NCBI GenBank assembly: GCA_964016885.1
Contig: OZ024746.1
Coordinates: forward strand, 11,842,001-11,906,000
DNA: 64,000 bases
Direction: 5' to 3'
DNA from: Eledone cirrhosa
Lineage: Eukaryota
The notes beneath the pieces were generated by a model. The model saw only the letters and a list, made by a program, of their open reading frames with translations, did no database searches and was not told the DNA's origin. Below are positions 3,186-63,082 of this stretch, in pieces (position 1 is the first letter of the stretch; the number at the start of each line of letters is the position of its first letter). Both the position numbers and the translations under genes were made by a program.

Positions 3186-3503
3186 GTGCCACCAGTACTA
3201 GAGGGGTTGTCAGGACTGAAGTACTTCCTATTGAGCCACCAGCACTAGAGAGGTTGTCAGGACTGAAGTACTTCCCAGTGTGCCACCAGTACTAGAGAGG
3301 TTGTCAGGACTGAAGTACCTCTCAGTGTGCCACCAGCATTAGAGAGGTTGTCAGGACTGAAGTACCTCTCAGTGTGCCACCAGCATTAGAGAGGTTGTCA
3401 GGACTGAAGTACCTCCCAGTATGCCACCAGCACTAGAGAGGTTGTCAGGACTGAAGTACCTCCCAGTGTGCCACCAGCACTAGAGAGGTTGTCAAAACTG
3501 ATG
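3186..3503. repeat. 47-bp minisatellite, about 6.7 copies
   Basis: Unit GTGCCACCAGCACTAGAGAGGTTGTCAGGACTGAAGTACCTCCCAGT starting at 3186, 3233, 3280, 3327, 3374, 3421, 3468. Confidence 0.97.
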
Positions 3504-35589: not shown

Positions 35590-36200
35590 CTGGTACAGCA
35601 GTACAATCATAAATTACTAGAAGGTGCATATCGAGAATGATTAAACTATGGACCAAGTTAGGAACGTGATGGAACAAGTTCTAGCAACGTGATGGAAAAG
35701 TCTAGCACACTATGAGGGAAAGAGTCAAATTAGATGAGATGCAGATGCAGTTCGGTTTCATGCTTGGGAGGAGTACTCCAGATGCCCTCTTCTTAGTGAG
35801 ACAACTACAAGAGAAATTTCTAGCCATGAATAAGCTGCTAGATTTAGCTTTAGTTGCTCTAGAAAAGGCCTTTGACAGAGTACTTCAATCTGTCATCTGG
35901 TGGTCCTTAAGAAAATCACATGTAGAAGAATGGCTTGTGAGGATAGTGCAAGCCATGTACAGGAGCTGTCAGTAAAGTGAAAGTAGGTAGTGAGGTATTC
36001 AAGGTACAGATAGTTCATCAGGGTTTGGTTCTTAGCCCATTGCTGTTCATCATAGTTTTCCAAGTGATAATAGAGGAGTTTAAAACTTGTTTTTCATGGG
36101 AACTTCTCTATGCAGATGATTTGGTCCTTATAGCTGAACCCATAAAAGAACTAGAGAATAAGTTCTGACTATGTAAACCGAATTTGGAATAAAAGGGTTA
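35590..36200 (+). mobile_element. RTE-clade LINE RT fragment (pseudogenised)
   Basis: ORFs 35712-35975 and 35977-36168: QFGFMLGRSTPDALFLVRQLQEK, LEKAFDRV, HQGLVLSPLLFIIV, LLYADDLVLIAE. Confidence 0.93.
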
Positions 36201-36244: not shown

Positions 36245-36520
36245 CTGATGGCGTTGTAGGTGTGACATATTGATATACAGCGTTTCTTGGGGAATTTTTA
36301 AACCTAGCAGAGCCCATTTTCTTTTCAGGTTTGAACATAGCCTATTTCTTACAGAGAAGGATAGAGAGTGAGAAAGAGATATAGAGAAAGGAAGTGAGAA
36401 AGAGATATAGAGAAAGAATCAATCCCAGTACTAGACTGGTAGTTTATTTATCGACCCCGAATGGATGAAAAGCAAAGTTGACCGAGGCAGTATTTGAACT
36501 GAGTGCAGAAAGCTGGAACG
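36245..36520 (-). mobile_element. SINE with extended 3' segment
   Basis: Core ATCGACCCCGAATGGATGAAAAGCAAAGTTGACC; whole unit is an inverted homologue of 45340-45620. Confidence 0.7.
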
Positions 36521-36555
36521 AATACATATATATATATACACATGTATATATATAT

Positions 36556-36745
36556 GTGTTCTTTATTATGGTTTAGTGGTGAGTCTTGTAACTCTAGAGT
36601 TTCACCCGTGTACTCACAGGATCATCAGGCAAGACTGTGAGTACACAGGTGAAACTCCAGAGTAACAAAACTCATCACTAAGCCAAAATAATTAATATTC
36701 AAACTCTACTTCTGTATCGAGTACTCACGTCCGTCAATATCACTA
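36556..36745. mobile_element. Head-to-head inverted pair of hammerhead-bearing element fragments (about 50-bp stem), between (TA)n tracts
   Basis: 36570-36619 pairs with 36635-36684; the right arm and its tail (TACTTCTGTATCGAGTACTC..CCGTCAA) are homologous to 39330-39440. Confidence 0.75.
36582..36636 (-). ncRNA. Minimal type-I hammerhead ribozyme motif (Penelope-like-element style), mutated
   Basis: Minus strand AGTCTTG-C-CTGATGA-T-CCTGTG-AGTA-CACGGG-T-GAA-ACTCTAGAGT-TA-CAAGACT: 7-bp stem I, CUGAUGA and GAAA core, 6-bp stem II, palindromic stem III. Confidence 0.72.
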
Positions 36746-36766
36746 TTTATATATATTTATAAATTC

Positions 36767-36767
<1 letters not shown>

Positions 36768-36797
<30 letters not shown>

Positions 36798-36857
36798 TGT
36801 ATGTATATATATATATATATATATATATACTTACATACACATACATGTGTATTTTTT

Positions 36858-36897
<40 letters not shown>
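36768..36897. repeat. Compound (TATG)n/(TA)n microsatellite
   Basis: Directly visible. Confidence 0.97.
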
Positions 36898-36903
<6 letters not shown>

Positions 36904-38495
36904 TATATGTATGTATGTTTATGCAGACATACATATCTCCCTCTTATATTTATATATAGATAAATAGACAATAGAGAGAGAGAGAATGAGAAAAAGATTG
37001 TTGCAAAATAAAATAAAGAAAACGATTTTGGTTGAAATTATTGTCAGAATAATGGTGTTATTCTGAACATTTGTTGTAACCACATAAATGCACCATAACT
37101 GGTTTTTCCAAGATAAGGAAATAACATGAAAATACTATTAAAAAATAGCTTTCGATAAAAAATATTTTATGTTGCCGAATTATATTTAGTGTAATGAATG
37201 ATTAATAAGTAATTTTAATTAATTTAAAGTTAATAACATAAGTTACTTAATTATTTACTGTGATATTGACGATTAATTAAAATTTACTATGGTTATGGTA
37301 TATTAATGGTGACGGTATGAATCGCAGAGGTTAAAATAATATGAGAAAAGAAATTAATATCATTAAACACTTAAACTGGTGATGTTTTCTTATGATTATT
37401 CGATTCACCTTAATAACAAAAACAAGTCTCAAATTGTAATTAATTTAATACAAATTAAATCTAAACAAAAAATTGAATATTGAAGATATTTTCTTCCCTT
37501 TCCTTTATTCTTCAGACTGGCATATTTCGATATACTGCTAAAATATTACAGTTGCTAAGAGAGAGGCAAAGCAGAGCGAATGCCTTGTATCGATTTTTAA
37601 TTTACTACACATTGTGATCTAATGATATCAGACTATACATGCACGTGTTATTGTGGAAATCTAAGCGATATGTGACTCACTTGATTATGGTTAGATCTTC
37701 ATTCAGCGCATTTTAAAAAACGATATGCCCTTTCTAGGTCCTAATTATATTCAGTAAAGCATATAGCCATATATGACCCTATATGAATGAATGGATTAAA
37801 TATGAATGAGTTGTGGGAAAAAGCAACACCAAAAACAATTTTAATGTTTTGTTTATATTTTGAAAAAAGAAAAATCAGACGAAGTACATATATTTTTCGA
37901 AAGGTATTTTTTAAAAGCACATTCTGTGATTGAGAAGAAAACAATTTAGTTAAGGTGAAAAGTAGAAATAAGATGTGAAATTCATTTGTCTCCAGATAGA
38001 AGAATATGAGTGTTGGTTTCAACTGGTAACGGAAACACCTTTCGGGGGGAGGTTCAATAAAACATTGCTTATTATTTCGTTACACAGCGGTCTTCTATGA
38101 AAGTAACTGTTTAACAAAGCGAATACAGCAGCTGGACATTGATTTAATATCATCTCTCTAATATCAAGCTTGGTTATTAAACAATAAATAAACTACTTTC
38201 TTTTCTTTTAACTGTTCCTAGTACAAACTCGTGATAAGTTGTTGTTTATTAACCCTAACTAAATATTCTATTGTATTATTACAGTTCACATGTTATTTTT
38301 TTTTAGACAGAAAAAATAGGCTTATTTACGCAAGTTATTAATGGATGAGTAAAGTAGGTAAGTACATTATATTCGGTTGTATTATATAAAATAAAGAGTG
38401 TAAAATCATTTCTCTACTCCTACCCCCATATGTCTGTGTTGAGCAGAGATAGAGTTAGTGATTGAGCCTCGTTTTGAAATAGCGCCAAATCGCTA

Positions 38496-38559
38496 ATGGC
38501 GGCCAGAGGAAAGAAGAAAATTATGAGTGCCACCGTGGATCATTTTTGTTCCATTACTG
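38496..38559 (+). CDS. UBXN7: UBX domain-containing protein 7, coding exon 1 (MAARGKKKIMSATVDHFCSITG), start of UBA-like domain
   Basis: ATGGCGGCC start, G|GTAAGT donor, phase 1; F..ITG matches the UBXN7 N-terminus and joins exon 2 in frame. Confidence 0.88.
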
Positions 38560-39313
38560 GTAAGTGATCGCAACTATAAATCCATCAATTCCATTATCAT
38601 TTAGTCCCCATGTTGTTCAGCCAAATCAGTTTGTACGAATGCAATGTCCTTGATAGGTTTTCAGTAATTTAGACTCGTGCAAAAACTGTCCTCATAGTCT
38701 TAGGGTTTTTTTTCTGTCTCATCTACTACTGATTTAACTCTATTACATTGTTCTTGCCATATCTCATTCTGCTGCTCAGAATAACGCACTTTCCGCAGGA
38801 TCTATTTTATATATAGAAAATGAATGCATATACTTTTCTGTTCAACTTTATTTCATGACTGTCAGAAGGGATTATGACATGGAGAACTGAACTAGCTGGA
38901 GTAGTTGTTATATATACAAGTTTTCGTCAATTTTATTCAGCGTTCATACAAAAAGCCTTTTCACTTATGGACATCTATGAAGTTATTTTTTCCTCTTTCT
39001 CCCTTGTCATCAACATTAACAGCTATTTAAATTCCAAGTTATGAAGTCTAGTACTGACAACTTGCTCGACATTACGTCATATTTATTTACCCTATAATAA
39101 GAAGGGACCTGTCTATAATTCTTGTGTAAAAAAATGTATCTTGTTTGAAGTTTAAGTGTGGTATTTTTATGCTATGCTAGAGACTATATTGACAGAGGAA
39201 CGTCGTGTTAGCTCAACTGTGTTCTCTCTTTATAATTTTATAGATCGGTATATATGACAATAATAGCCGTCCGTGTTATATATATGTATACACATACATA
39301 TGTAATATAATGT

Positions 39314-39363
39314 TCTTGTTTGATGACCCCGTGAGAAGCAGGCGAAACTCCTGCGTAACAAGA
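39314..39363 (+). ncRNA. Second hammerhead motif copy (C3 replaced by T), sense in UBXN7 intron 1
   Basis: TCTTGT-TTGATGA-CCCCGTGAGAAGCAGGC-GAAAC-TCCTGC-GTA-ACAAGA: 6-bp stem I and GUA cleavage triplet; the element continues to about 39450 and is flanked by TA/CA repeats. Confidence 0.65.
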
Positions 39364-42124
39364 CTCTCTATTTAGCCTTAATAAAACGAATAATTAAACT
39401 GTACTTCGGTATTGAGTACTCTTTTCTCTCGACCGTCAACTACACACGGATATATATATACACATACACACCTACATCCATTTGATTCCTTTAAATTCAA
39501 ATTTACGTAACTTGGAATCGAGCGGTGTATTTTACTGGTATTAGTTTTATAGATGACTATTTGATCTTAGAAGTTATTTAGTGTTTGTCGTCATCTATTA
39601 TACCATAAAACATTACATATAAATGATCAGATATAGGACAATACAAACTGCAAATATCTCACTTTCCGATAATGTTCATTCTCTAAGTTCCTTTCAATCT
39701 AAATAATTCATTGTCCTTGTACAAGTTTAGTTTTACTTGGTTGATATTGTGAGTGGCATCATGTTTCTTATAATTAAACCTGGTCAGAGCCTGCGACGTC
39801 CGGAATTTGTTCACTTTATTGATAGATATTTCAATAATTCTATCTTGATTGCGGCTTTTTTTATAATTGCTTTTTCTTTTCAATAAAGAGACATATCTAT
39901 GGTTTTGTATGGGGCGACAACTAGAGCTCTTCTTGTAAGGTATTTTTTTAAATTTTCATTGTAACAAATCCACACCAAACAGCCAGCGAGCAAGAAAATC
40001 TCTACATGGTTGCTCTATCTGTTAGAAATAACAGTTAAAACTAAACTTCCTCATAAATCATAGCGTTGTCTTACAATGTCCCTCAATATTAAAAAAAACA
40101 TACGGCGGGATGGTCACCGCTCTACTGCCTTTCATTTGAACTCACCTGGGACTAAGCAACTACATACAAACGTTTTTCCTTTGTAATTATTGTTTTTTAA
40201 ATACAAATAAGCTAGAATATTTTTTTAGTCATTTCACAATTGAATGTGAAATGTAGGAGTTGAAATAATATTGAAATATATAAGTAATTATTAACATCAT
40301 CGATTTCTCATAAGTGTCATAGTGTAATAATGACAAAAGTTTTTATATAAATTTGTGTTATTGTTTAATGAGCTATTGACAAGAAATTGTAACTTTGTAT
40401 ATTTATTTAACTTTAAACACAAATAATAATATTGTTAAATTCAGGTTCTGACTAAAGTTTTACGGAATATTGAAAAAAGATCGATTTAATGTTGCATTTT
40501 TTAAATATTTTCTGAGTACGGATACGAATACAGTTAACGAGAACTTGGTATAATCGAAAGTTGTCATTAAACCTGTCATAGCAATTAAATGTTAGAAACA
40601 CATGAGTAGCTTTTCATTGTGACTGACTCTGCCGACATTTGCTGCTTGAATAGCACATCGGCATTCTTACACAATTTTATCGAATTAGTTTGTAGACACT
40701 ATCTAGTCAGAGAGAGCGAGAGATGTTTAAAACTATTGGCTATTATTTGGAAAAGATAGAAGCATTACATTTTCCTTTTCTCTGAAAATATGTAGTGGTG
40801 CCCCAGGCAAAGACAACTCTCAGTGGGTTCATACAGCTTGTAACACATCTAGCTGCATTAATATGTATAGTTCACAGCAGTTTAATAATCCAATAATCCA
40901 ATGTTTTGATCGTTTACAGTGCTCCTTGTCACAAGGAAAAGAACCAAGTAACTCTTCCAGTTTAAATTTATTTTAAGAAATGTTAAGCTATTTAAGTTGA
41001 ATAAACGATATATAGTAGTTGTAGCAGTAACCTCATGTTCATAGTACAAACAAAAGGCGGTTGTACTAAATAGCATGTTATATATGTAATAGTATGGATG
41101 TATTTTAAGTTAAGAAGCTCTGAGTTTCTCACTAAAAACTGTCTTCATCTTATTGACTTCAGTGGGTAATAAATGCTAATCTCCCTTCAGGAATTTTGGA
41201 GGGCCTCATTTCTTTCCCTTTATAAAATCAACGGCAACAGTTTAATGTTCGTTTTATTTTCTATGCCGGAAGAGGTTGTTATAAAATATTTTGTCATCTA
41301 CCTTTGTGCAGCCTAGCATCCTAAAATCTGGTCTCACCACTTCCCACACCACCTTTAGTCTTTTGTACTTGTCATTGAAAACATTTAAGAAATTGAATTC
41401 TTTGTTTATTTAATTTTATAGTTTCTTCTATGCCCCAAAATGTCTTATTTTAAAATCTAATTACACAATCATCTTTTCTATTACCTTATGTTCCAGCAGT
41501 GTTCAACTGCATGTAGCCATAGAAATATTTTTTATTACATGTGAACAGTTACTATTGTTGCAAATAATACCCAAATGACATCTGTATATCAACTTGTGGC
41601 TACAATGTACTGTTGCTTGTGAACATAAGTACAATATATTATATATATATGAGTTTAGATCGATATCCAGTTGTATGTCATATTATGTACACATATATAT
41701 TTATGTTACAAACTTAGTTGTATTTATTGTTGAGTTAAAAAAAAAAATCTAATTTATATATTTATAGTTCTTACAATGAGACATATTTATACTGGTGTAA
41801 GTTTAATAAAATGTAATCCATTCTCTACATTGGATGACCCTGTTAATATAGGATGCTAGGCAATCACCCATGAATTTGCTAGTTTGCATTCAATAATAGC
41901 GTTACATGCATCAATGATTAATCTACTTAATGCCTAATTATTTTTAGTTCCAAGGAGGTACTGTGCTTCTTATCTTAAATCCTTCATCACTTTGGACAGG
42001 AAGCATTTAGTTTGATCAACTGGGTTACCTACTTGTGACATAAACATGTAATGGCCTGGAATTCTAGGCAGAATCAAAACAAACTATATGTTACTAGGCT
42101 AGATCTTTGAATTGCTGTTACAAT

Positions 42125-59435: not shown

Positions 59436-59952
59436 TATCAAATAGATAGTACAAGCCTCACTATCAAACAGATAATACAAGCCTCACTATCAAACAAATA
59501 ATACAAGCCTCACTATCAAACAAATAATACAAGCCTCACTATCAAACAAATAATACAAGCCTCACTATCAAACAAATAATACAAGCCTCACTATCAAACA
59601 AATAATACAAGCCTCACTATCAAACAAATAATACAAGCCTCACTATCAAACAAATAATACAAGCCTCACTATCAAACAAATAATACAAGCCTCACTATCA
59701 AACAGATAATACAAGACTCAATATCAAACAGATAGTACAAGCCTCACTATCAAACAGACAGTACAAGGCTCACTATCAAACAAACAGTACAAGGCTCACT
59801 ATCAAACAGATAGTACAAGCCTCACTATCAAACAGACAGTACAAGGCTGACTATCAAACAGACAGTATAAGGCTCACTATCAAACAGATAGTACAAGCCC
59901 CACTATCAAACAGACAGTACAAGGCTCACTATCAAACAGATAGTACAAGGCT
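59436..59952. repeat. 26-bp minisatellite, about 20 copies, in UBXN7 intron 3
   Basis: Unit CAAATAATACAAGCCTCACTATCAAA; homogeneous first half, variant units in second half. Confidence 0.97.
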
Positions 59953-62505: not shown

Positions 62506-62838
62506 GTAAGTTAACTTTTACAATACTGGCTTATATAATGTTACAGGCACACAGTAAATTGCCTATACCACCAATGCCCAATTGGTTTTAGATTTATATC
62601 CTGTAGTTGCAATGAATATTTGAATCCTCACCATTTTTATGTATGATTTTTCCATGGTGGTGTGTGTTGGATGAGAATTTTTGAGGCATTATTCAATGGC
62701 TGGATGGCTTTTCTGACACCAACCAATGGTATTTTATCTGATGCTCTACCAATTCTGCCAATCCGCCCACCCTTAGTAATATTGAAAGACATAGAAAACT
62801 TTATAATGATGATGATAATTTTTTTTCTGTTACATCAG

Positions 62839-62985
62839 GCCCGGGAAGAAGGAACCAACCAAAACAGATGGTTAATGGTTAACATACAAAATGTACAGGA
62901 GTTTGCTTGCCAAACTCTCAATCGAGATGTCTGGAGTAACAGTGCTGTCCGAAATATTGTGAAGGAACATTTTATATTGTGGCAG
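62839..62985 (+). CDS. UBXN7: UBXN7 coding exon 6, UAS (thioredoxin-like) domain (AREEG...WLMVNIQNVQEFACQTLNRDVWSN...HFILWQ)
   Basis: CATCAG| acceptor, CAG|GTGAAT donor, phase 0 to 0; hallmark UAS motif. Confidence 0.97.
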
Positions 62986-63082
62986 GTGAATTATTTTGAA
63001 TGATATTTCTTATTTTCTGTTACTCCCTTCTTTATAAGTAGGGTGAGAGTATTTTCTCTTTTGTAATGTTTGTATATCCCAA

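Follow-up and report, generated by a model that had tools for sequence, protein, structure and literature searches.

A head-to-head hammerhead insertion in Eledone cirrhosa is probably the double-primed 3' end of a decayed Penelope-like element

The 64,000-nucleotide stretch of Eledone cirrhosa DNA analysed here (the window) carries at positions 36,556-36,745 what is in itself an ordinary dead transposon fragment. It probably consists of two arms, inserted head to head, from the 3' end, with the hammerhead, of a decayed Penelope-like element (PLE). The copy is likely inert, and its arms would have been primed on both strands of a TA repeat from uncleaved transcripts of a TATA-plus-initiator promoter. 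Judging from the ends of family copies, we lean with some reserve towards reading ribozyme-only PLE fragments not as random truncations but as run-off copies of a transcript that would start at the first base of stem I under such a promoter; copy ends would then map the RNA 5' end, and the template would be uncleaved.

Results

Two arms are joined head to head at the locus

Both the hammerhead and the head-to-head layout of the original prediction are real and span 36559-36743 (Table 1). The type-I hammerhead on the minus strand has the boxes, the 7-bp stem I, the 6-bp stem II with its AGUA loop and the stem III that had been described, the 5'-truncated second copy lies on the plus strand and is joined to it through a CT overlap, and the three copies claimed for the window were recovered. 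The minus arm starts exactly at the consensus first base, an AG where family copies stop and a putative RNA start; the third copy begins one base inside the same 5' boundary. The catalytic boxes of the minus-arm hammerhead are intact. Its triplet, expected to be GUA, reads GUU (36592-36590), and the closing pair beside the cut site is broken, being a C-A mismatch. Stem III is self-complementary at the locus as predicted but not in the family, which has a central CA; the perfect palindrome here is due to a C-to-T change private to this copy. Positions 36563-36691 make up an imperfect palindrome with 82% self-match, for which a fold of -80.5 kcal/mol (z -14) is predicted. Since the two hammerheads lie on opposite strands, a sense-sense dimer is impossible there, and a read-through transcript is predicted to form one long hairpin. 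With its broken closing pair and its burial in this hairpin, the locus copy is probably inert.

The pattern CTGATGA-N8-30-GAAAC matched once in the window, where 0.35 matches were expected, and at least once in 28 of 100 shuffles. The boxes alone are therefore not significant, and significance rests on the family, for which a boxes-plus-stem-I pattern gave 189 exact genome matches and its reversed control none. An Rfam scan returned no hammerhead at E<=1, only microRNA-type hairpin matches below threshold.

A second, shorter TA run lies on the other side of the element (36524-36554). The UBXN7 context, claimed at about 1.8 kb, is plausible: the putative first coding exon of a presumably UBXN7-like gene starts at 38496. 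A Thioredoxin_7 domain follows downstream (62647-63000; Pfam, E 5e-13), and the third copy sits in sense orientation in the putative first intron. To the left of the element, in the region 35706-36200 / 36430-36520, are a decayed LINE reverse-transcriptase fragment with a weak RVT_1 match (E 0.11) and what is presumably a SINE-like repeat. Minisatellites were seen at 59436-59949 (26 bp x 19.8) and 3186-3501 (47 bp x 6.7).

Table 1 Features of the locus and its neighbourhood (window coordinates).
Feature	Position	Strand	Content or basis
Tail-less minus arm	36559..36636	-	Full hammerhead and about 25 nt of 3' sequence; 72/78 bases match the consensus of the 18-nt-stem-II subfamily
Type-I minimal hammerhead	36582..36636	-	Stem I, CUGAUGA 36628-36622, U-U apposition, 6-bp stem II, GAAAC 36603-36599, stem III
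Tail-bearing arm, 5'-truncated within stem II, without CUGAUGA	36635..36743	+	Aligns to consensus 18-134
Inversion junction, 2-base (CT) microhomology or arm overlap	36635..36636	.	Consensus alignment
One-sided optional PLE tail (3' extension), about 45 bases	36699..36743	+	Family arm-end mapping
TA/TATG microsatellite flank, target-site type	36744..36916	.	Repeat scan
Third copy, solo arm with tail, 17-nt-stem-II subfamily	39312..39450	+	Consensus alignment
Putative first coding exon of UBXN7-like neighbour	38496..38559	+	Sequence; 1.75 kb from the element

The family is large and decays neutrally after insertion

A DNA search of the species' own genome gave 1672 first-look candidates, with a query that favours palindromes, and all 40 places scored matched on both strands. 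A 21-base tail motif had 951 exact matches in the genome and none for the reversed control. The genome holds roughly a thousand or more such short pieces; given about 10% decay per copy, we infer from the exact-match counts that the true number is likely several thousand. The insertion in repeats that had been proposed was confirmed, with a microsatellite (TA, CA or TG runs counted) at 81 of 94 tail ends versus 87 of 400 background windows.

The family consensus has the CUGANGA, GAAA and NUH boxes and the three stems of a type-I hammerhead, and three stem II types occur. At position 10.1/11.1 the window's subfamily has U-U (17/17 and 19/22) and the commonest subfamily mostly C-C (46/55 and 51/67); all 28 ungapped arms carry a pyrimidine-pyrimidine apposition, and the G10.1-C11.1 pair was not encountered. 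According to Cervera and de la Pena (2014, PMC4209133), minimal PLE hammerheads conserve this pair strongly. The apposition had been regarded as unusual, an assessment that does not hold: it is present in 15 of 25 published Hydra-clade families, as counted from File S2 of PMC8557442, and is hence a clade trait already visible in print.

Of the conservation expected genome-wide, that of the boxes was found and that of stem covariation was not: among 364 cells there were 20 wobble and 51 broken pairs and no double change, as expected for neutral decay of copies from few masters. The hammerhead core is kept no better than its flanks (228/255 vs 492/564; 791/868 vs 1582/1702), and all boxes are retained in 10 of 36 sampled full arms. 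Together with the lack of double changes, these results indicate neutral decay after insertion. A consensus dimer is predicted to take a double hammerhead fold at -39.4 kcal/mol, compared with 2 x -17.5 kcal/mol. The family is probably uncatalogued, and the element is of a known kind.

Copies end at two 3' sites and at one sharp 5' boundary

Copy ends were mapped in the first 100 listed of the 951 tail matches, a sample from one chromosome that is unbiased for 5' structure and that came to 93 loci after six segmental duplicates and one unalignable locus were dropped. An inverted arm was present at 55 of these 93 tail-selected loci. Inverted arms end at +77..+83 in 34 of 55 cases and tail arms at +131..+138 in 82 of 93, giving two fixed 3' ends about 55 nt apart, with and without the optional tail. 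An inverted 5'-truncated copy combined with an optional 3' tail is what is found in endonuclease-bearing (EN+) PLEs.

The start of stem I (+2) is reached by 50 of the 148 arms; 46 of them stop at -4..+2 and four go further. The stop rate was 0.13 per base at -4..+2 versus 0.011 at +3..+75; because this interval was picked post hoc and arms that share a locus depend on each other, the binomial p (7e-47) is exaggerated. Arm ends already rise at +3..+10 (30/80), and in an aligner control none of 300 simulated full-length copies was shortened. Solo arms stop at the same boundary in seven of nine cases. Two other sources of the ends were rejected: stops at the cleavage site occur in one of 124 arms, so 5' ends defined by it are rare, and junctions of the stem-I fold-back type are rare as well (1/55).

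Among 22 long copies, 14 have a TATA-like box at -30/-29 and 19 an initiator-like TYAG at the boundary; this reading of the motifs takes the usual initiator consensus and -30 spacing as background. Another 19 box-bearing copies were listed by a pattern that itself requires the TATA-like box. The inversion junctions comprise 51 distinct ones out of 55, with two types recurring (four and two times), and fall into overlaps of at least two bases (19), near-blunt joins (9) and joins with filler (27). A second piece on the same strand was found at 4 of 94 loci, at irregular distances, and regular tandem arrays, which the original prediction had proposed to look for, were not seen; the family is therefore not a retrozyme.

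The parent is a decayed coding element

Some copies, a minority, continue on their upstream side into a long stretch without coding sequence, and an endonuclease remnant upstream is shared by five loci (other than L252, see below). In a search with the endonuclease alone, the hammerhead lay downstream on the same strand at 7 of 36 fetched 9.9-kb loci, counts that exclude the four seed loci, and at none of 40 control loci from other GIY-YIG PLE families, which links the family to a GIY-YIG/RT open reading frame. An inverted copy was present upstream at 5 of the 36, and 29 showed no downstream hammerhead within the fetched stretch. Endonuclease, untranslated region and hammerhead are colinear in L311, L315, L318 and L324, the 3' UTR being long in the first three (about 1.6-2.2 kb). 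L303 and L305 hold a near-full RT-linker-endonuclease ORF broken by stops and frameshifts, and all scored coding copies are broken. The window's own subfamily is tied to coding sequence by L305, L335 and L424 only, and the strictly matched UTR-bearing arms (28/28) belong to another subfamily. These data link an RT plus an endonuclease of GIY-YIG type at the C terminus to the hammerhead repeat, as in EN+ PLEs, and bear out the assignment to a Penelope-like hammerhead with an inverted partial terminal repeat.

RT and endonuclease domains and clade motifs were judged by eye against the definition and alignments given in the available parts of PMC8557442. Broken copies contain Hydra-type motifs, namely a CxCX5C linker, CxxC, and CxH near a terminal E/N (CNCRDQTQC, RCHLC, LNSREE, CLH), with no CCHH, and the RWK and DKT motifs appear in close, not identical form (MKWK in L305, NKT in L303 and L305). 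On motifs read in this way, the parent is a decayed PLE with Hydra-clade protein features. Pfam gave no match on the coding fragments, the domains being recognised by eye, and no homologue came up when a 147-aa RT fragment was searched against a protein database. In a protein search of the genome, in which 150 of 46133 candidates were scored, the closest matches (47-65% identity) all had stops, and the family looks extinct. Long open frames, with a length of 758 codons recurring, occur in a younger Hydra-like family at about 41% identity (e.g. G000:C2:273386884), which is a candidate for intact elements. A full tandem, with a terminal repeat in front of the ORF, was not found at either of the two longest ORF remnants, and only two copies reach the 5' part.

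An apparent parent was rejected: the Neptune-like endonuclease 1.5 kb upstream of the copy at L252 is closed off by a hammerhead-like motif and a TA run of its own, with the family nested beside it. The stretch upstream of L089 is another repeat, accompanied by the hammerhead at 2 of 29 other loci. GIY-YIG candidates number 10596 in the genome. The 70 loci taken from the Pfam search for GIY-YIG (30 short and 40 long, partly overlapping) contained none of the studied hammerhead. At least eight further hammerhead-like sequence types were seen near GIY-YIG loci (L182-L221). L196, L197, L201 and L205 represent a young Neptune-like PLE family with frames of 844-938 codons and a terminal hammerhead whose first box is UUGAAAA, reportedly the U3/A8 covariant core of Schistosoma PLEs. 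Six same-strand hammerheads of another family lie about 490 bases apart at L202:7268-9696 (G000:C3, near 308.737 Mb); they form a tandem array resembling a retrozyme, with a GIY-YIG match a few kb away.

Discussion

We propose that transcription would start at the first base of the ribozyme, under a TATA-plus-initiator promoter just upstream; the start is read from copy ends and motifs alone. Reverse transcription would begin about 80 or about 137 nt downstream, on uncleaved RNA. The element's enzyme would prime two short cDNAs, one on each strand of the TA repeat, both of which would run toward the RNA 5' end and off it, and the host would join their ends by short homology or filler, yielding a head-to-head palindrome with a tail on one side. 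Run-off at the RNA 5' end would leave many ribozyme-only copies without a TATA-like box, and such copies are likely dead ends. The ribozyme would have worked, if at all, in the master element, through the predicted stem III dimer.

The 5' edge could instead reflect RNA processing or structure rather than a promoter, through a TTAG splice acceptor where helix I begins, as in Drosophila Penelope, 5'-exonuclease trimming to the folded ribozyme, or fold-back of the cDNA through stem I. In D. virilis, helix I has the end of the Penelope intron at its 5' end (PMC4209133), self-priming has been proposed for head-to-head PLE palindromes (PMC3846280), and one subfamily has its edge just where an 8-bp stem I starts. 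We nevertheless hold processing to be unlikely: the AG, which splicing would take away, is still present in 12 arms, no shared upstream exon was seen by eye, the fold-back type is confined to a single junction, and solo arms, too, stop at the same place. Still less likely is a separate non-autonomous mini element of about 140 nt, SINE-like or retrozyme-like as had been suggested, with an internal promoter and amplified in trans, whose short copies would beget more short copies. Such an element would suit the great excess of short over long copies (4 of 148 arms pass the boundary), their common 5' edge and the two recurring junction types, and an origin of animal retrozymes in the terminal repeats of PLEs has been reported (10.64898/2026.07.22.740005). 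However, 51 of 55 junctions differ, the 94 loci showed no regular tandem array, and the short copies, which have no TATA-like box, are linked with a coding PLE, all three stem II types occurring also joined to upstream UTR or ORF.

A functional role of the locus, as a ribozyme or hairpin that regulates the UBXN7-like gene nearby, is very improbable. The boxes on the minus arm are intact, the read-through hairpin is predicted to be very stable, and the putative start codon follows 1.75 kb downstream of the element. Against this, the copy has decayed by 8% from the consensus, with a broken closing pair and a GUU triplet, its full hammerhead is antisense to the gene, the family core is kept no better than its flanks, and the locus is one of some 1000 or more copies.

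The studied family comes closest to the Hydra-clade C-terminal-endonuclease PLEs (Craig et al. 2021, PMC8557442; e.g. Hydra-2_Amil, Hydra-1/2_Ajap, Penelope-n_HM). Shared with them are the protein motifs (RWK-like, DKT-like, CxCX5C linker, CxxC, CxH), TA-repeat targeting with a hammerhead near the 3' end, the pyrimidine-pyrimidine apposition and an ACUC..GAGU stem III, and by eye the 3' sequence of Hydra-2_Amil resembles the tail of the studied family. The family's 10-mer 3' motif has no match in the supplement text of PMC8557442, where line breaks could hide one, which points to a distinct family, and the hammerhead of the listed octopus member Hydra-1_Obim differs. With the minimal PLE hammerheads of PMC4209133 it has in common a type-I motif in a terminal repeat, a palindromic stem III and mostly single, dispersed motifs with some opposite-strand pairs; that paper stresses G10.1-C11.1, whereas the studied family has U-U or C-C. 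Non-LTR retrozymes (PMC7229834; bioRxiv 2026.07.22.740005) likewise carry a type-I hammerhead in a small repeated unit, but they form direct tandem arrays, whereas the studied copies are dispersed, solo or head to head, and tied to a coding element.

For the green anole element Poseidon (Frangieh et al. 2024, PMC11167929), it was shown that cutting and extension take place on both strands of AT-rich DNA and that reverse transcription starts at two internal sites bounding the tail, with no need for ribozyme cleavage. The studied family shares two tail-bounding 3' positions and an AT-rich target, and cleavage, shown to be dispensable in Poseidon, would be so here. Poseidon belongs to another clade and its ORF starts inside the ribozyme, whereas inspection showed no open frame starting in the terminal repeat of the studied family; the available passages of PMC11167929 do not describe a 5' boundary for the short copies in the genome. 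Already described are truncated copies in inverted orientation, tails, pairs of hammerheads on opposite strands, and TATA- or initiator-like motifs in PLE terminal repeats (PMC8557442; PMC4209133; PMC3846280). The TATA-less internal promoter of Drosophila virilis Penelope (PMC2377424) counts against the TATA-plus-initiator model. Neither the sharp 5' boundary of short copies nor the studied family was found in a literature search that covered available passages of articles including PMC7229834 and PMC6765202; the passages of PMC13282606 do not mention hammerheads or this family.

The family pattern bears on the open question of the purpose of PLE hammerheads, since copy ends pile up at the first base of the ribozyme and avoid its cut site. 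As genomic evidence from a second clade, it supports internal priming on uncleaved RNA, and it points out a short promoter with a start site, both directly testable. If the run-off reading were general, it would explain why animal genomes hold so many solo minimal hammerheads, and the job of the ribozyme would shift away from generating the template's 5' end.
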